The notes beneath the pieces are model-generated. The model saw only the letters and a program-made list of their open reading frames with translations, searched no databases and had not been told where the DNA came from. A stretch of 64,000 nt of DNA from a virus. Its lineage: Duplodnaviria > Caudoviricetes. The DNA lies in IMG/VR virus record IMGVR_UViG_3300020598_000119. One strand, 5' to 3'. Position 1 is the stretch's first letter; every line of letters begins with the position of its first letter. A program made the position numbers and the translations under genes. This document shows positions 7,122 to 39,658 of this stretch, in pieces.

Positions 7122-8650
7122 AGACGAGGTGAAGGCAACGACTCTCCAAACTGGACAAAATCATTTTCCAGATCGGATGCATGCCTTCCCTTAATGCGAG
7201 TAGCTAATCGATCTCTGTCTATGACAGATTTCTTCGTCACCTCATTGGCCGTGTTCGACAGCGCATATAAATGCCCTGCCTCTTCATCGAATACGCCCTT
7301 GAGGTCGTCAGGGACGTTATAACCCTCATAGAGAGCCAAACGGGCACTGGCATTTTCATTCAACGAGAACTCACTCACCAACTGCTGGATTTCAAAGCGA
7401 TACCGATCTTCGACTGCCTGCCTCTGATCAGGGTCCATGCTCGCAAAGCTGATGCCGATGTTCTTGGCCACGAGCGCTGCGGACTTCATCTCGCGTTCGT
7501 TAGCGACATCACGCCCATCTTCAGAGCCAAAACGGCTAGCAGGCAACGCCACCTTCTTTGCGATCTTTGTCGCAACCGTGATGATGTCTCTCATTGATGC
7601 ATCATGCGGGACGTCAGCCGCAAAAGCCGCGCGCAAAGCCTTATGCGTCGCCTGTGCGAGCACACCGTCCTTGAGCGTGCCAGGTGTCGTATGGAAACGG
7701 CTCTGGCCGTAGTGCAGTGAAGCCTCCTTGAGATCGGCCATCTCCGCGATAACGGTGCTTCGACCACCATCACGAAGGAACAAAAGCGCAGCCGTTGCAT
7801 CTGCAAAGCAAGCAGCGATATGGCGGGCACGAGGAGAGCTTTCTACGTCCGCCTGCAGTCCTTCAGAGGCACCAAGACAGTTGTGAGCCAGGCCGAGTGC
7901 AATGGTGCGGGCTGCGCAAAACTTGCGCGTCTCATCGAGGTCCATACTCACCAGTGGGAATGCTCGACTGCCCATTGATGCGATTTCACGTCCATAGGCC
8001 GAAGGCCCCACAAACGGGGAGTATGGCAGAATGAAATTCAGCGAGATTTCCTTGTTGCCAGTGATCTCTTCCGTCACGCGGCTGCAATAAGGTTTGAAAC
8101 CAGCACGCAGGAGGACGGTCAGGTCATTCAAGCTTCTGATTGAGCCTTCCACGTCTGCAGGCAACGAGCTGTCACGAAGCGATGATGTTTCCCAATTGGA
8201 ACGAGCGACCGCCTGAACGTCAATGACGTTCAATGCAACACCTCGGCGGGCCGCCTCGTCCGTGAAGGCCCCAAGCGCCCAATTCAAATGGTCGTCCTCA
8301 CTGACTGGAGCACGCTCAATCGACACCCCCGTCCCAGGAGAAACGACTGCGGATTTCGAACGAGCCAAAAGCTTGGCGAGCATGCGTGCAGTAATGTCGG
8401 TACGGCTACCCATCATTATGATGCGGTGAGAGCCTTCCATGATCACGTCCAGAACGCTCTCACGCAGATGCATCTCAGCTTTGCCAAAATCGTCAAAGTG
8501 GAGACGTCCAACAACATCCCCGCCCATCGCAGGCTTGATATCGCCCTTGAAGGTGACATCGAGCACAGTACCATCGCGCTGAACAACGACGTATTGATCG
8601 TCATCCCGCTTGGCGCGAACGGTTCCTACAATGACCTCACCTTCTTTCAT
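7118..8650 (-). CDS. Hypothetical protein, 510 aa
   Basis: Long ORF coupled to the upstream 107-aa ORF; ends ...SLPSPRL. Confidence 0.75.
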   Translation of the reverse strand: MKEGEVIVGTVRAKRDDDQYVVVQRDGTVLDVTFKGDIKPAMGGDVVGRLHFDDFGKAEMHLRESVLDVIMEGSHRIIMMGSRTDITARMLAKLLARSKSAVVSPGTGVSIERAPVSEDDHLNWALGAFTDEAARRGVALNVIDVQAVARSNWETSSLRDSSLPADVEGSIRSLNDLTVLLRAGFKPYCSRVTEEITGNKEISLNFILPYSPFVGPSAYGREIASMGSRAFPLVSMDLDETRKFCAARTIALGLAHNCLGASEGLQADVESSPRARHIAACFADATAALLFLRDGGRSTVIAEMADLKEASLHYGQSRFHTTPGTLKDGVLAQATHKALRAAFAADVPHDASMRDIITVATKIAKKVALPASRFGSEDGRDVANEREMKSAALVAKNIGISFASMDPDQRQAVEDRYRFEIQQLVSEFSLNENASARLALYEGYNVPDDLKGVFDEEAGHLYALSNTANEVTKKSVIDRDRLATRIKGRHASDLENDFVQFGESLPSPRL

Positions 8651-8653
8651 CTC

Positions 8654-8977
8654 TTATGCTCCAAAACTCATGCCAAGCGTGCGAGGAAGTGCGTCAACCT
8701 GGTATTCCTCAGCCTGAATTTCGCCTCCAACGAATTCGCGCAGCATAAATGGGCCAGTCGAACACGATTGCTCGTAATCCTCCGCCGACATCCCGTCTTT
8801 TACGCCGTATCTGTCTCCATCAGCGCTAGTAAGGAAAAATCCGTCGTCATCGAATCCGACATTCTCGAATTTCGTTCCGCGAAGTCGTTCTGGCAGGTCA
8901 AGAATACAGACGGTGGCGTCTTTGCCGATCACGACAAGGGCGGCGTCCAGTATATTTTCAGATGTATTTTGGGTCAT
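8654..8977 (-). CDS. Hypothetical protein
   Basis: ggag RBS upstream; stop 3 nt before next ATG. Confidence 0.7.
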   Translation of the reverse strand: MTQNTSENILDAALVVIGKDATVCILDLPERLRGTKFENVGFDDDGFFLTSADGDRYGVKDGMSAEDYEQSCSTGPFMLREFVGGEIQAEEYQVDALPRTLGMSFGA

Positions 8978-9223
8978 TTCATTCTCCGGAATTCTGCAAA
9001 GTCGATCTTCTCACCATGGCCAGCAAGCAACCACCAACATTTTTAGCCGCCCAGAACCCTGAAAATGTGTTTTTCAATTATAATTGGAGGGATATTGCCA
9101 TTAAACTACGGATTAAATCGGGGGCCTGTAAAGCAATTGACGCCTAAGCTGAACCAGCGCACAATAATTCACGGGCATCAACTCCATCCAATGGCGCGAG
9201 CTACGAGGAGCCGGATAAGTCCC

Positions 9224-9254
9224 AAACCCCAGCACCTTGAGAGCTGGGGTTTTT
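9224..9254 (+). terminator. Intrinsic terminator closing an orphan leader-like segment
   Basis: aaaccccagc-accttgaga-gctggggttttt. Confidence 0.7.
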
Positions 9255-9344
9255 AGTTTCTGGTGATAGGTGGAAATTTCACTGAAACCACCATTTTCAC
9301 CAACCAGTGAAATAGCCAGTTTCAGTGAAATTCAGAGTTCAACT

Positions 9345-11033
9345 TCACATTCGCTCAGGAACTTCGATGCCGAGCAGATAAAGGCATTCGGACAAGACGA
9401 CCTCTACAAACTGGCAGATCGCCAACCGCGATGCGTTGACCTTCCCGTCGAATACGACCTGGCATTCGGAGTAGAAGCGGCTGAACGCCTGGGCGACCGA
9501 GAATGCAAACTCAGCAACCTCTTTCGGCTGATAACGGTCTGAGGCCGCCTGAACCGCCATTGGAAAGCCAACGCAGGTCAGCAACAATTGCCGCTCGGCT
9601 TCGTGCTCGACATTAATCTCTCCTGTGTTGCCTGCCGATGGCAGAGTAGCCGCCTTGGCTACGACACTGCGGATACGAGCGCACGCATACTGGAGGTACG
9701 GCCCCGTCTTTCCTTCAGGCGCGGTCATCCGCTCAGGATCAAAGATGTAGCCCGAGATACGATCAGTCGACAGATCGGCGAACTTCAGGGCACCAATGGC
9801 GATCTTCTCCGCAATCTCCTGATTGCCGTCGCTGACACGAGCCTTCGCCTGCTCAACGGTAGAAGCAAGCAGATCGGTCAGCTTTGCAACTCCGCCATCG
9901 CGCGTCTTGAATGGCTTGCCGTCCTTGCCATTAACGGTTCCAAAGGCGACGTGCGCCAATTCGGCTCCATGATCAAAGCCCGCCTTCCGCGCCACTTCGA
10001 AAACCGACTGCAAATGCTGTTCCTGCCGTTGGTCGACGACATAGAGAATCTTCGACGCGCCCATCCCTTTAGTACGCTGCACGACAGTCGCTAGATCGGT
10101 TGCCCCATAGAGGGCTGCGCCATCGGACTTCTGCACGATCAGTGGCGGCTGGCCTTCAGCGACATCAACGACTAGCGCACCATCGCTAACCCGCGACAGT
10201 CCCTTTGCCTCCAGCTCTGCAAGCATGGCTGGCAACGCATCATTCACATCCGACTCGCCTAGCATCAGATCGAAGTGAGCCTGAAGCTTTGTGATGTCGC
10301 CAGAGATCGAAGACAGCGAGACTTCCCGCATCTCCTTCCAGACTGCCAGCAGATAGGGGTCGCCAGCTTGAAGTTTTTGAGTGAGGTTCCGGGCGCTTGC
10401 CAGAACCGCCCCGTCCTCCTTGGCCGCCTTGCTGGCAATCCGGTACATTTCTTCGAGCACATGGACGTCAAATTCGGGAACAGCTTCAGCCGCCCAATCG
10501 TCCGGGTACTGCTGACTGATCTGATGCAGAAGCATCCCCATCTGCAGACCCCAGTCGCCCCAGTGGATGTCTGATACCACGTCATAGCCAACCGCTTTCA
10601 GAATCCGCCGCAGGCTTTCGCCAATAACGAACGACCGCAGATGACCGACGTGAAGAGGCTTGGCGACGTTTGGGCCACCGAAGTCGATGACAACCAGCTG
10701 ATCAGGCGAGACCTTCTCAATACCAAGGTCGACTGATGCCCGCATGTTAAGTACCTGCTTCTCAACGAACCAGGATGCCAGCTTCAGATTGATGAAGCCT
10801 GGGCCACCAACTGATACGTCAGCAAACATCGGATCAGACTTGATCTCGCTCACGATGAGGTCCGCCAGCTCACGCGGCTTCATGCCAGCAGATGCTGCAA
10901 CTGACATGACGTCATTGCACTGATAGTCGAAGCCAGGAGTACGGTTGGGCTTGAGAACCGGGGTAATCGCTACTGAAGCACATTTGGAAAAGGCAACTGC
11001 AATTGGAGCAGCCGCAAGCTGTAAGAAGTTCAT
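9345..11033 (-). CDS. argS: Arginyl-tRNA synthetase
   Basis: DFGGPNVAKPLHVGHLRS (HIGH), GDWGLQMG, KPFKTRDG (KMSKS), GPYLQYACARI, C-terminal PERM. Confidence 0.96.
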   Translation of the reverse strand: MNFLQLAAAPIAVAFSKCASVAITPVLKPNRTPGFDYQCNDVMSVAASAGMKPRELADLIVSEIKSDPMFADVSVGGPGFINLKLASWFVEKQVLNMRASVDLGIEKVSPDQLVVIDFGGPNVAKPLHVGHLRSFVIGESLRRILKAVGYDVVSDIHWGDWGLQMGMLLHQISQQYPDDWAAEAVPEFDVHVLEEMYRIASKAAKEDGAVLASARNLTQKLQAGDPYLLAVWKEMREVSLSSISGDITKLQAHFDLMLGESDVNDALPAMLAELEAKGLSRVSDGALVVDVAEGQPPLIVQKSDGAALYGATDLATVVQRTKGMGASKILYVVDQRQEQHLQSVFEVARKAGFDHGAELAHVAFGTVNGKDGKPFKTRDGGVAKLTDLLASTVEQAKARVSDGNQEIAEKIAIGALKFADLSTDRISGYIFDPERMTAPEGKTGPYLQYACARIRSVVAKAATLPSAGNTGEINVEHEAERQLLLTCVGFPMAVQAASDRYQPKEVAEFAFSVAQAFSRFYSECQVVFDGKVNASRLAICQFVEVVLSECLYLLGIEVPERM

Positions 11034-11085
11034 GATGTTTTCCTTTGATAAATAGATGCGTGAATCCGAACGGCGGAGCGGATGC

Positions 11086-11133
11086 TCAACGTCGTCTTCG
11101 CCTCAACACAAAAATCTTCAAAGGGTTCAACAT
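11086..11133 (-). CDS. Putative argS leader peptide MLNPLKIFVLRRRRR
   Basis: Read manually: aaggaa RBS, ATG TTG AAC CCT TTG AAG ATT TTT GTG TTG AGG CGA AGA CGA CGT TGA, ending 52 nt upstream of the argS ATG. Confidence 0.8.
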   Translation of the reverse strand: MLNPLKIFVLRRRRR

Positions 11134-11325
11134 GACAATTCCTTGGTTGCTAGGCCCTGAATATCAGATGATAGCGGGCGCATCAATATTTATTTTTTCC
11201 CAATTCCGCCCTCAACAAAGGCCGACATTAATCGGAGGAATATTGGCATTTGCAAGAATCCGAATTATGTAGATTTACATTTTCTTTGTTTTTTGATTTA
11301 TTGCGGGCATCGTTAGGAGTTTATC

Positions 11326-12351
11326 GTGCCGCAGAAATTTTTGGTTAGAGTCACCCATGGATCGCATTTGTTCGGAACCAACACCGAGACGTCCGATATG
11401 GACATCAAGTCGGTAGTGCAGCCGAGCGTCGAACAAATTCTTCTGGGCAAGGTCAATTGGTCGAAGGCCGTTGGCGCTGATGACTCGCGCGCAAACACAA
11501 AGGATGATGTCGATGACGAAAGACACGATCTTCTGCGCTACATGCAATTGCTGACAACTGGGCAGCCGATGGCGCTCGAAATCCTGTTTGCGCCCGATCA
11601 GTTCCATATTGGCGACACCCATCCGGTTTGGCGTGAGCTGCAAGCCAATTCTGACCTGCTTATCTCGCGCAAGTCTCAGAAGTTTCTTGGCTATTGCCGT
11701 CAACAGGCCACGTCTCACGGTCTCAAGGGCGAGCGTCTGGACGCGGCCCAAAAGGTGCAGGTCATCCTTGACCGACTGGTAAAGGAAGAGGGACCACGCA
11801 AGGTGCTCGGTGCCTATCTCCATATGATCGTCGCTGAAGTGAAATCACCTCACGTGTCGGAAGTGTTCCGAAAGACCGTCGACGGCAAGGAATTGAGCCA
11901 TCTGAAGATCTCAAACAAGCTTGCTGCGGCGACCATCGAATTGAAGGACGCAAAGGATATCTGCGATAACGTCGTTCAAAACTACGGTCGCCGTGCTCGC
12001 ATGGCTCAGGAAGGCCAGGGTAAGGACTGGAAGGCTCTCAGCCACGCATTGCGCATTGGCTACGAAGCTCTCGAACTATTCGAGAAATCCTTCATCACCT
12101 TTCCGCGTCCAGAAGCGGCTTATCTGCTTGCAGTGAAACAGGGCAAGGTGGACCCCGATGTCGTCGGGAACGAAATTGAAGACCTTCTCTATAAGGTGGA
12201 AGAAGCGTCTGAAAATTCGTCGCTACCCGAAGAAGCAGACGTCGCGTTCATGAACGAAATGGTCATCAAGAACTACGGTGAAGCAGTCTTTGAGGCCTAC
12301 TCCGTTAATCAGGAAAACACCGAAGAAGACGCACTGCTGCCCACTATTTGA
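11326..12351 (+). CDS. Pol-beta superfamily nucleotidyltransferase (RlaP / phage-type)
   Basis: GSHLFGTNTETSDMD = GS..DxD motif; C-terminal DWKALSHALRI and LLAVKQG helical domain; GTG start with aggag RBS. Confidence 0.85.
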   Translation: MPQKFLVRVTHGSHLFGTNTETSDMDIKSVVQPSVEQILLGKVNWSKAVGADDSRANTKDDVDDERHDLLRYMQLLTTGQPMALEILFAPDQFHIGDTHPVWRELQANSDLLISRKSQKFLGYCRQQATSHGLKGERLDAAQKVQVILDRLVKEEGPRKVLGAYLHMIVAEVKSPHVSEVFRKTVDGKELSHLKISNKLAAATIELKDAKDICDNVVQNYGRRARMAQEGQGKDWKALSHALRIGYEALELFEKSFITFPRPEAAYLLAVKQGKVDPDVVGNEIEDLLYKVEEASENSSLPEEADVAFMNEMVIKNYGEAVFEAYSVNQENTEEDALLPTI

Positions 12352-12409
12352 AACTTTCTTGAAGAGCAGTGATTTTAAACAAGGATCGCTGCTCTTTTGG
12401 ATATCTATA

Positions 12410-13510
12410 ATGCGCATTAGGAAGCCGAGTTTTCATCTGGATTCATTTCGAAATACTCCCCGTATTTTCGAAAACGATATTGCTATCTGCCTATCTTCGC
12501 CTGCAGTTCAAGACATCTTGATTGAAGCATCCAAGAAGCATTTCGCGGCCGCATTCCAGAATGACAGAAGCCAGTTTAGCAAATCGCTCGCCAATCAGGT
12601 TGCATCCACTCTCTTTAAAACCGCCGACAAAGAGAAAGCGCTGTCCCATATTAAGCCCACAACCGTGTCGGAGGAATTACGAGCTGAGTGGAAGGCAGAG
12701 ATAAAAAACAGCCGAGCCTTTCATCTCGTCAATGACGCAATGGTCGACATTCTTCGTCGGCTTCATCCAGAAAAATCCATCAACGAGATTTCTGAGGTGA
12801 CATCGGAGGCAATTTCCGACGCCACCATCGAAGCAGGCAGGTCCCACGACCTCAGTCGACCGATTGATGCGGTCAGAGGCATCACCACCATTTGCGCGTA
12901 TGTGCCCCTGCCCGATGGTCAGACAGATCCAACCGAGGTATGTACAGCATTCTGGTCAGAACGGAGCAGCTCGACGACGATCAAGCCAAGCGGGGCGTTT
13001 CTGGAGTTCCTGAAACTGACCAACATATCGACTGACGAATGGAAGTCCGCCGTTCTCGAAATTCATGATCTCGATCTCGGTGGAGAACTGGATGACGACG
13101 CATTCACATTCGAAATCGAGCGAAAACAGATATGGGAGACGGTCCAACAGGAAGCCGACGACACCAGGCCGTCGCTAGTCGACGTCGAGGATCTGGTTTA
13201 CGCCATCGATAATTGCCCGTTCGGCTTCACCCCTCTGGTGTCCTTCAGCATGCCCATTGAGGAGATCGTTCATAGGGATTGGAACACGCCAATCAAGGTA
13301 ACAGGCGGCATTCTTGGTCTTCATGACTTCATCAATGGGAGTGGCGATCCCTTGCGATTTGAAGGCGAAATCGAACTGTCACCGACGATTTCGAACATGG
13401 TGGCTGCAGGCGCACGGGCGAACGACATTGCGTCGGTGCATGGCTTTGTAGATCAAAGTTTCAAATCATTCGTTGAAGACATCACGCCTGAGCGTGGCTT
13501 GACCATGTGA
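12410..13510 (+). CDS. Hypothetical protein
   Basis: Long ORF; start moved to ATG 12410 to avoid overlap with the upstream gene. Confidence 0.7.
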   Translation: MRIRKPSFHLDSFRNTPRIFENDIAICLSSPAVQDILIEASKKHFAAAFQNDRSQFSKSLANQVASTLFKTADKEKALSHIKPTTVSEELRAEWKAEIKNSRAFHLVNDAMVDILRRLHPEKSINEISEVTSEAISDATIEAGRSHDLSRPIDAVRGITTICAYVPLPDGQTDPTEVCTAFWSERSSSTTIKPSGAFLEFLKLTNISTDEWKSAVLEIHDLDLGGELDDDAFTFEIERKQIWETVQQEADDTRPSLVDVEDLVYAIDNCPFGFTPLVSFSMPIEEIVHRDWNTPIKVTGGILGLHDFINGSGDPLRFEGEIELSPTISNMVAAGARANDIASVHGFVDQSFKSFVEDITPERGLTM

Positions 13511-13527
13511 CGCTCCTGATCCTATCA

Positions 13528-13618
13528 AAAAATATCTGCGCTCCTTATTTCACATCCCGAAAATATTCAATCATCGATCCGTCTGTTTCGGCCGATTTAG
13601 CGATGCGCAGATATTTTT
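13528..13618. repeat. 14-bp perfect inverted repeat with 63-nt spacer
   Basis: aaaaatatctgcgc (13528-13541) / gcgcagatattttt (13605-13618). Confidence 0.8.
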
Positions 13619-13743
13619 GTTCCAAGATATTTTCAATAATACAAGGTCAAGATGGAATCCAGAACCTCAATGCGAAATAAATTAGTGGCGTAATCGTTGC
13701 GGACATATTACGTTTGTAACAAATTGAAAAATACGGTGATTCA

Positions 13744-14730
13744 ATGACTATTCTTGTGACGGGCGGAGCAGGGTATATCGGCAGTCATGTGGTTCTTGAA
13801 CTCATCAATTCAGGACAAGAAGTAGTGATCCTGGATGATTTATCTGTAGGCCGCAGATCAGCCCTTGATAACGACGTAATGCTCTATATGGGCGACATAG
13901 GAGACACCGGGTTTGTGACCCGGATCATCGAAGCGCACGACATCAAGGCCGTCATCCATCTGGCCGCCGTGACTTCAGTCCCCTACTCCATCGCCAACCC
14001 TGAGCAGACCTACCTAACCAATACCGTCAAATCGCAGGCACTGCTCGAAGCCGCACTCCAGGCTGGAGTCTGCAGGTTCGTCTTTTCTTCCGTTTCAGCG
14101 GTGTACGGAGAACCAAAGACAGACAGAGTTCGGGAAGACCATCCACTGGCTCCAAACACGCCGTACGGCGATTCCAAAGCCTCATTCGAAGCCATTCTGG
14201 CCGACGCACAGAAGAGATACAACTTCACCTACGCTATCGTCCGATGCTTCAACGTCGCTGGTGTGGACAAGGAGCAACGTGTGCCCCAATGGCCTGACAG
14301 CCCTACCCACCTTGTGAAGCTTGCAGCCATGGCAGGGATCGGGATCACCGACAGCATCCAGATCAACGGTTTCGACTATGAGACGACTGACGGCACCTGC
14401 GTCCGTGACTACATTCACGTCACAGATGCCGCCCATGGACACATCCTCGCGCTCCAGCGCCTTCAGGAAGGTAAGTCATCAATCACTATTAATCTCGGAT
14501 CAGGAGTTGGCACCTCGGTAAGAGAAGTTGTGGAAATTGCCCGCAGAATTGGAGGGAATAACTTCAAAATTATTGAAGGAGAAAGGCGCGAGGGCGATCC
14601 AGCCATAATTGTTGCGGATACCACTCTTGCGGAAAGCGAACTTAGGTGGAAACCGCAATATTCAAATATTGAGGAAATTATCCAATCTGCTATAGAATGG
14701 GAAAAAGCGTGCACGGCGCACCGTTTTTAA
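13744..14730 (+). CDS. galE: UDP-glucose 4-epimerase
   Basis: TGGAGYIGSH Rossmann motif, YGDSK catalytic motif, DGTCVRDYIHV. Confidence 0.92.
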   Translation: MTILVTGGAGYIGSHVVLELINSGQEVVILDDLSVGRRSALDNDVMLYMGDIGDTGFVTRIIEAHDIKAVIHLAAVTSVPYSIANPEQTYLTNTVKSQALLEAALQAGVCRFVFSSVSAVYGEPKTDRVREDHPLAPNTPYGDSKASFEAILADAQKRYNFTYAIVRCFNVAGVDKEQRVPQWPDSPTHLVKLAAMAGIGITDSIQINGFDYETTDGTCVRDYIHVTDAAHGHILALQRLQEGKSSITINLGSGVGTSVREVVEIARRIGGNNFKIIEGERREGDPAIIVADTTLAESELRWKPQYSNIEEIIQSAIEWEKACTAHRF

Positions 14731-39073: not shown

Positions 39074-39658
39074 TCAAGGTGTTTGAACGTGAAGGCCCAA
39101 ACCATCATCCGTAGGCACGACTTGATCGTCTTTCATATTTGCCTTCGCGTAAGCGATCATGTGGCGAAGGATTTCTGACGTCGGAACTCGCCGATCCAAG
39201 CGAATGGCTTCGGTTCGCGACAGTCGTGCGATCAATTGATGATCGCTGTCATCCAGAGAATATGACTTCTCCGACTTTGTCTTGGTCCTTTTGGCTGGCG
39301 TTGCCACAGGCGCTTCCGGCACAGAAACCGATGCCCTGTCTTCCACCGGAACCTGTTGCTGAACGACGGGAGCCTGATGCTCCACTCGGGCCTGTGGCGC
39401 AGGCGGCTGAACAGTTTGCGGGGCCGGAACAGATTGACCAATAGTCTCGGCCGCCGCCATCTCCGTCATGCGTTGCAGCTCGGCGATTGTGCCACCAGGC
39501 GTGGCGTCTGGATAATGCTGTGCCTGCCGCATACGCTCGGCCAGGCCCGAGTTCAGTATGTCCAGCTTCGACTTGGGTTTTTCACGATTCATGAACGCAC
39601 TCTTCTTGTCGGAAGAGGTTAGCTGGTTCGTCGCAAGTGTTTGGCTGTTGCCGCTCAT
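39074..39658 (-). CDS. Putative centromere-binding protein with C-terminal ribbon-helix-helix
   Basis: Disordered N-terminus then KSYSLDDSDHQLIARL...TSEILRHMI (strand-helix-helix pattern); directly upstream of parA. Confidence 0.6.
   Translation of the reverse strand: MSGNSQTLATNQLTSSDKKSAFMNREKPKSKLDILNSGLAERMRQAQHYPDATPGGTIAELQRMTEMAAAETIGQSVPAPQTVQPPAPQARVEHQAPVVQQQVPVEDRASVSVPEAPVATPAKRTKTKSEKSYSLDDSDHQLIARLSRTEAIRLDRRVPTSEILRHMIAYAKANMKDDQVVPTDDGLGLHVQTP

Follow-up and report, generated by a model that had tools for sequence, protein, structure and literature searches.

The window, the 64,000-nucleotide stretch of DNA analysed here, carries on its minus strand a gene for a 562-aa arginyl-tRNA synthetase (ArgRS; argS, 9345..11033) with a short upstream open reading frame (uORF) in front of it. 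The argS product is a full-length enzyme, scoring 410.5 bits against TIGR00456 (cut-off 261.65) and containing the Pfam domains Arg_tRNA_synt_N, tRNA-synt_1d and DALR_1, and the HVGH motif is invariant in the alignment of its clade. Elsewhere in the window lie genes for CTP synthase, LigA, FtsH, RecD2, RecQ, a topoisomerase, MucR/Ros, a prepilin peptidase, T2SS E/F-type pilus components, an LPD1 polyvalent protein, RlaP, cREC and a dual-specificity phosphatase, together with many ORFs that showed no Pfam match. ARAGORN also called a 92-nt tRNA-Ala(CGC) at 39155-39246 (plus strand), within overlapping ORFs near the partition region; its length is odd, and it may be either a false call or an interrupted gene.

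Among the genomes compared, the nearest was that of Mesorhizobium sp. SP-1A (G001), in which a collinear region is 96.8% identical to the window. This region is part of a 1.19-Mb contig (C2, 1-1189113) with a G+C content of ~50% over its whole length. The G+C content of the window is ~51% throughout, and that of housekeeping argS genes of the host genus is 63%. The window looks like part of a plasmid-like replicon of very large size (at least 1.19 Mb, ~50% G+C). Syntenic relatives span 44 to 68% G+C, and the replicon stretch in the Mesorhizobium assembly also carries ThrRS and SerRS genes beside that for ArgRS. Both G001 and a second genome, G106, encode a separate, housekeeping ArgRS that is only 26% identical to the leader-linked enzyme, and in G001 it is encoded on another contig. 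The leader-linked argS is therefore an auxiliary copy in G001, and likewise in G106.

The uORF occupies positions 11133..11086 of the minus strand, with its ATG at 11133 and its TGA stop codon at 11088..11086, and encodes the 15-residue peptide MLNPLKIFVLRRRRR. Its codons are ATG TTG AAC CCT TTG AAG ATT TTT GTG TTG AGG CGA AGA CGA CGT TGA, and 52 nt separate its stop codon from the argS ATG (11033). The original prediction had described a 15-codon minus-strand ORF with its own ribosome-binding site AAGGAA, and this could be read directly in the window: the Shine-Dalgarno (SD) sequence lies at 11139..11144, 5 nt 5' of the start codon. The five terminal Arg codons (AGG CGA AGA CGA CGT, 11089..11103), which are the presumed sensor, and the 52-nt distance were also as claimed. 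Among the 673 ATG-initiated ORFs of 8-25 codons in the six frames of the window, RRRRR occurred in 2 and RRR within the last six residues in 8. A chance ORF is ruled out by this rarity of Arg runs, by recurrence of the leader in 16 diverged loci, and by the leaderless controls described below.

A stem following the uORF had been predicted as well, and ATCCG (11083..11079) and CGGAT (11068..11064) are indeed present; there is no U-tail 3' of the stem, and a scan for intrinsic terminators in the interval between the uORF and argS of the window found none. A terminator-like hairpin with a T-rich tail was detected by the terminator scan further upstream, after a 182-aa ORF (11222..11235, minus strand), which suggests a separate promoter for the leader and argS within 11150..11220. 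A sigma-70 promoter scan gave no match. No match was obtained when both strands of window positions 8000..14000 were scanned with the covariance models of Rfam 15 at E values up to 1, indicating that the leader is neither a T-box nor a known RNA leader.

We then compared the regions upstream of homologous argS genes, the check by which conservation of the Arg run was to be judged. The outcome was positive, as a leader uORF was present in 16 of 16 examined loci of a single ArgRS clade, in which protein identity falls to 48%. All 16 share one design, with 12-16 codons, a C-terminal run of 3-5 Arg residues and a stop codon 44-57 nt before argS, and in all relatives an SD-like purine motif is found 4-10 nt 5' of the uORF start. 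The first comparison set comprised members of a graded series of ArgRS homologues, at 97, 89, 81, 81, 80, 70, 54, 53, 54 and 51% protein identity, and synteny was kept in this set for RlaP, a 107-aa gene, a ~510-aa gene and the phosphatase. The leader peptides of the set include MNEPLKTIVSRRRRR, MFLFLELNAFRRRRR, MMFIFLNNCGLNRRRR, MYNALKAEMLRRRRR, MCVFSAKNRQRRR, MSIRRRRMFRRR, MGILANRPLLRRR, MRQFGARDRRERRR (which begins with TTG) and MAHFLVQVRRRRWR. The same design was seen in cultured bacteria of a second (Rhizobium) subclade, whose ArgRS are 48-50% identical; here the leaders are MRNTIPARPRRRR on plasmid pRlX5 of R. leguminosarum TP16, MENIVPKTVRRR in genome G106, MKNIVPKIARRRR in A. rubi and MTIIPKIAGRRR in R. 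pisi. A leader had also been forecast for a basal clade member, P0020, from its position in the tree before its DNA was examined, and one was found (MENSILKITRRRR, with a gap of 52 nt to argS).

The N-terminal portions of the leader peptides cannot be aligned between lineages, and the Arg residues are retained through synonymous exchanges (AGG/CGG, AGA/AGG and CGT/CGA/CGC/AGG). Divergence of the N-terminus combined with retention of Arg through synonymous change is the mark that selection leaves on Arg codons that are translated. The segment that begins with the SD of the uORF and ends at the ATG of argS is 100% identical in the window and G001, and 13 differences are found in the ~175 nt upstream of it. 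A quick maximum-likelihood tree placed all leader-bearing ArgRS in one clade (SH-aLRT 94), with all tested leaderless ArgRS outside it. In R. pisi, the leader-argS cassette (chromosome contig, L177:389-2077) adjoins a phage head-tail connector gene, suggesting that the cassette also travels on prophage-like DNA. At L044, L045, L176 and L178, and probably at L161, a gene for a ChaC/GGACT-type gamma-glutamylcyclotransferase is divergent from the argS leader; in the window lineage other ORFs take its place upstream of the leader.

Leaderless loci of the same ArgRS type numbered about 95 in all. An ATG-initiated uORF with RRR was found before none of 29 housekeeping argS loci of Mesorhizobium and relatives. 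An Arg uORF was also absent from the sister-group loci, namely seven Labrys-like loci and those of Cupriavidus and Roseibium, and from the S. meliloti pSymA locus and two other Hyphomicrobiales loci (L174, L175). The Labrys-like genus g60 (L165-L171) has a strongly conserved non-coding leader of its own in the 150 nt upstream of argS (...GCTTACTGCGAACGCTGACCGAATTGATAGGAAGCGTCCGCATG). More distant argS loci showed no credible Arg leader in 82 of 83 cases, and neither did the IMG/VR huge-phage contigs L149, L150, L153 and L156 (415-608 kb), whose ArgRS are 39-45% identical. A search of a phage database returned only distant ArgRS (38% identity or less), none of them relevant, and a pattern scan of metagenomes only generic E. 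coli-type ArgRS (43% identity or less). The candidate at L071, also from the metagenome scan, was rejected as a leader, being the C-terminus of an upstream gene. The single exception among the distant loci was L094 (1-342), a low-GC metagenome argS whose product is 41% identical. It has an Arg leader of its own, MNHFISLSIRRRR (CGA CGT CGA CGA), behind which come, in order, a perfect terminator hairpin, its T-run and GGAGG-ATG. This classical terminator design indicates an independent invention of an Arg leader, as a classical Arg attenuator of argS.

Codon usage differed sharply between the leaders and the genes that they precede. When codons were counted by gene across 10 lineages, CGA, AGA and AGG made up 35 of 50 Arg codons in the leaders (70%) and 25 of 341 in the argS ORFs (7%; Fisher p 4e-22), the latter favouring CGG. 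In the window argS, CGG accounts for 13 of 24 Arg codons (54%), as against 7.6% in 17 other window genes (p 1.6e-8), and only one of the 24 (4%) is CGA or AGR, compared with 30% in the 17 genes (p 0.005). The preference for CGG and the near-absence of CGA, AGA and AGG in argS are kept across the clade, even in elements of 44% GC. The leaders are thus rich in CGA/AGR and the argS ORFs poor in them, so that the sensor is written in codons that the effector avoids, and this partition matches the codon choice that selective-charging theory gives for leaders (PMC1183508). Four of the terminal codons had been called rare, a description that holds for the housekeeping argS genes of the host genus, where such codons make up 18% of Arg codons, but fails for the replicon, given the 30% in the 17 window genes. 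That CGA/AGR are not rare on the replicon counts against the sensor model set out below. In addition, the dicodon CGA-AGR occurs in 12 of 15 distinct leaders, and CGAAGR is conserved at the nucleotide level in most of them, so a constraint at the RNA level may also act on the leaders.

Secondary structure was predicted for a segment reaching from 20 nt 5' of the uORF to +24 of argS. Each leader was predicted to fold as one long irregular hairpin whose 5' arm is the uORF and whose 3' arm consists of the spacer with the argS SD and AUG; at its apex, in both subclades, a hairpin surrounds the final Arg codons and the uORF stop. The z-scores of the minimum free energy (MFE) were -1.2, -2.3, -0.9, -3.8, -1.0, -2.9, -2.0, -1.4, -1.6 and -3.0 for ten leaders (mean about -2), and -0.5, -5.0, -0.9 and -3.6 for the Rhizobium subclade. 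In the window, MFE and centroid folds delimit an apical hairpin domain (11057..11110, minus strand) which includes the ATCCG/CGGAT stem, and has the Arg codons and stop codon as its 5' arm and the first ~30 nt of the spacer as its 3' arm. Downstream of the apex, the SD and AUG of argS are predicted to be sequestered by the leader ORF in 14 of 14 leaders. The argS initiation region had 5.5-13.4 expected base pairs with the native uORF and 1.3-5.9 after shuffling of the 5' arm, and native pairing exceeded the shuffle mean in all 14 leaders (Fisher about 2e-4, 7 lineages). The core of the argS SD was paired at 0.6-1.0 per nucleotide, nearly all of it with a pyrimidine stretch in uORF codons 2-7, again in 14 of 14. 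This predicted anti-SD is CCUUUGA in the window (uORF codons 4-6, 11118..11124, minus strand), where its partner is the argS SD AAAGGAAA (11039..11046, minus strand; 0.8 per nt), and UUCC or UCCC in Rhizobium.

Support from covariation was limited. RNAalifold gave a consensus of three helices and 25 pairs in the Rhizobium subclade, where covariation was not significant (128 of 500 shuffles reached the observed score), and no consensus for six leaders of the megaplasmid subclade. Close relatives showed just 1-2 compensatory pairs, with 10-14 of 48 pairs broken. We also folded the leader with and without a ribosome, as the original prediction had proposed. The argS start region opened only modestly: with one ribosome constrained at the first Arg codon of the window leader, the probability that the argS initiation region is unpaired rose from 0.31 to 0.49, and it reached 0.67 only when the whole uORF was covered. 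This modest opening by a single modelled ribosome suggests that a queued second ribosome or kinetic effects may be needed. Measured from its centre, the anti-SD is 12-23 nt 5' of the point where the terminal Arg run begins. In the Rhizobium subclade this distance keeps it within the footprint of a stalled ribosome, and in the window subclade it is right at the margin of that footprint.

Taken together, these results make it very likely, as judged from sequence, that the leader acts as a sensor. The ribosome-mediated sensing of Arg-tRNA originally proposed is supported by the conservation of the leader, by the codon partition and by the predicted anti-SD within the uORF. Either translational or Rho-dependent attenuation had been envisaged; the codon partition and the anti-SD fit a sensor that acts on translation, and an anti-SD switch is the best-supported output, somewhat more probable than not. 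On balance, we consider it probable that the uORF is a translated leader peptide which gauges charged tRNA-Arg and controls the auxiliary argS by translational attenuation, with ribosome stalling, the direction of regulation and the translational level of action all being parts of the model that we infer. In the window we found no mutually exclusive terminator and antiterminator hairpins with a U-tract; lacking a terminator between the uORF and argS, the leader would not be a classical transcription attenuator, though it would work like the leader-peptide attenuators.

The predicted pairings suggest how such a switch might operate. The start region of the uORF would pair with the argS start codon and the anti-SD in codons 2-7 with the argS SD, and the apical hairpin would hold the Arg codons and the uORF stop. 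With an ample supply of Arg-tRNA, the ribosome would pass the Arg codons and terminate; at the uORF stop codon it would already be off the anti-SD, the hairpin would close, and argS would be poorly translated. When Arg-tRNA is scarce, especially the species reading CGA, AGA and AGG, the ribosome would be held up once the first Arg codons enter its A site. The rear half of this ribosome would then cover or sterically block the anti-SD 12-23 nt upstream, a blockage to which a queued second ribosome may add, and the waiting ribosome would melt the apical hairpin, so that the SD and AUG of argS become free and ArgRS is made. The argS ORF, written mainly with CGG and avoiding the sensor codons, would be translatable during a shortage of Arg-tRNA. 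A link of the leader to tRNA-cleaving defences, which had also been suggested, is speculation.

The same Arg sensor might instead have a transcriptional output, through Rho acting in the C-rich spacer or early argS, or through termination at the apical hairpin before a run of Us. The spacers are pyrimidine-rich with more C than G, and Rho is the effector in the speF orf34 and tnaC leaders (PMC6386406). Tracts of U5-U8 lie 3' of the apical hairpin in L042 and L043, and such U-runs suggest that termination may contribute in some relatives; a classical terminator design is resembled by the thrS leader of the same replicon (see below), and a clear terminator follows the Arg-run uORF at the unrelated argS locus L094. 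However, the window and most relatives have no intrinsic terminator, and a spacer of 44-57 nt is short for Rho loading. Moreover, the Arg codons form the 5' arm of the sole hairpin, which a ribosome would block whether stalled or terminating, and without a pause of RNA polymerase the two states would not be discriminated. The conserved SD/anti-SD pairing would also be left unexplained. We regard a transcriptional output as rather unlikely. A further alternative does without sensing altogether: uORF translation could serve as a constitutive helper that unfolds the argS ribosome-binding site by coupling or standby, with the Arg run serving termination or pairing. Pairing between the two initiation regions alone would tie argS translation to that of the uORF, and the CGAAGR motif is conserved in most leaders at the nucleotide level. 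Such a helper would leave several things unaccounted for: that the run is always cognate to the downstream enzyme, that Arg persists through synonymous exchanges involving both of its codon families, that the leader favours just those codons which the argS ORF avoids, and that thrS of the same replicon has a Thr run before it. It appears improbable.

Conservation of CGAAGR as nucleotides, and the complete identity of the leader between the window and G001, could be taken to mean that the element works as RNA or DNA only, for example as an operator for ArgRS autoregulation of the thrS type or as a small RNA or protein site, with the reading frame incidental. The leaders, though, have kept their start codon, SD, frame and length as well as an in-frame stop, even where the codons preceding the run have diverged completely, and Arg is preserved through AGG/CGG and CGT/CGA/CGC/AGG exchanges. 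Inspection of the predicted folds revealed no loop like the anticodon loop of tRNA-Arg, and the absence of an Rfam match also speaks against an element of this kind, which we hold to be very improbable. The least credible of the alternatives, in our estimation hardly to be entertained, is that a +1 frameshift at hungry codons or read-through of the stop codon fuses the leader to ArgRS in a prfB-like manner. Relative to the uORF, argS of the window lies in the +1 frame, which has no stop codon between the Arg run and the start of argS; the same open +1 relation is found in L036, L040 and L178. Across loci, however, the relation varies (+0 in 6, +1 in 6 and +2 in 3), and in 9 of 15, among them the close relatives L035 and L039, the argS frame is interrupted somewhere between the Arg run and the start codon of argS. 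As neither frame relation nor openness is conserved, fusion was rejected as a family-wide mechanism.

Sensing of charged tRNA by leader peptides is textbook knowledge for his, trp, thr, leu, ilv, phe and pheST. For aminoacyl-tRNA synthetase genes, the leader attenuator of pheST (pheM, E. coli) is known and those of Streptomyces trpS and leuS are predicted (PMC1262725). Like these, the argS leader is a short ORF rich in cognate codons directly upstream of a synthetase gene, and it would share their homeostatic logic, in which the charged tRNA being sensed is the enzyme's own product. They are transcription attenuators with terminator and antiterminator hairpins, whereas the window argS leader has no terminator; its run lies at the very C-terminus, its predicted output is unmasking of an SD, and it brings in a new amino acid (Arg) and a new gene (argS). 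An auxiliary indolmycin-resistant TrpRS of Streptomyces coelicolor is reportedly under ribosome-mediated attenuation (Vecchione and Sello 2010). This enzyme resembles what is proposed here for the ArgRS in being a second synthetase that is silent and induced via a leader of cognate codons when primary charging fails. It differs in that its attenuator is transcriptional and uses Trp codons, and in that its role in resistance has been demonstrated.

In its predicted layout the argS leader resembles those of cat, cmlA and ermC, in which part of the ORF belongs to the 5' arm of a hairpin masking a downstream ribosome-binding site, no terminator is present, and a ribosome stalled in the leader keeps that site open, as proposed for argS. 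Stalling in those leaders is induced by antibiotics and depends on the peptide, whereas the only conserved peptide feature of the argS leader is its run of cognate codons, which points to stalling limited by tRNA. In the speF leader of Salmonella (orf34/speFL), consecutive Arg codons sense arginine via alternative mRNA folds (PMC6386406). Consecutive Arg codons are shared with argS, and alternative folds, including sequestration of a ribosome-binding site, would be shared if the predicted argS folds hold, but orf34 encodes a conserved peptide of 34 codons with two Arg codons in mid-ORF, also senses ornithine, acts through Rho and RNase G, and has a decarboxylase, not ArgRS, under its control (PMC6386406). 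In Firmicutes, T-box riboswitches lie upstream of argS (PMC1262725). The gene and the proposed signal (uncharged tRNA-Arg) are the same as for the argS leader, but a T-box has no ORF and reads the tRNA directly by RNA-RNA contacts, and no T-box matched within window positions 8000..14000. The original prediction knew of no characterised leader-peptide attenuator for argS, and we likewise found none in the literature combining leader peptide, arginyl-tRNA synthetase and attenuation.

A second cognate leader was found outside the window on the same replicon type, upstream of thrS (G001:C2 about 176.9-177.1 kb; L159:2995-3078, minus strand), which encodes a 394-aa ThrRS without N-terminal domains (TIGR00418). 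The uORF has 27 codons, seven of them consecutive Thr codons (MRAILNIALTTTTTTTAYGGPYRGVMR), and is followed by a GC-rich hairpin and UUUUCUUU (fold z = -4.2), so that it looks like a classical Thr leader attenuator placed before a synthetase gene. No leader was found at serS on the same replicon type. An Arg leader at argS and a Thr leader at thrS indicate that leaders of cognate codons are recurrent for the synthetase genes of this replicon.

The leader and ArgRS might together form a module, mobile and inducible, that serves as a back-up for the charging of tRNA-Arg or as a means of resistance, a reading that we put forward only tentatively. Carried by rhizobial megaplasmids and phage-like regions, such a module might stay off until charging of Arg-tRNA in the host collapses, and its argS mRNA, recoded to CGG, might be translatable during the collapse. 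Possible triggers might include an ArgRS inhibitor, toxins that attack tRNA-Arg, or canavanine with CtdA-type deacylation, a combination that could amount to futile cycling in legume rhizospheres. The position of the megaplasmid cassette beside the RNA-repair genes for RlaP, cREC and the phosphatase could, in the same tentative vein, mark a translation-rescue toolkit. The leader is of a terminator-less design that apparently acts on the ribosome-binding site, and its sensor codons (CGA/AGR), set against the effector codons (CGG), offer a natural illustration of selective-charging theory. It belongs, moreover, to a mobile second ArgRS. Because R. leguminosarum, R. pisi, A. rubi and Mesorhizobium sp. 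SP-1A, all of them cultured, carry the cassette, it is directly testable by standard genetics, and the argS leader could reveal why rhizosphere bacteria keep a spare ArgRS.
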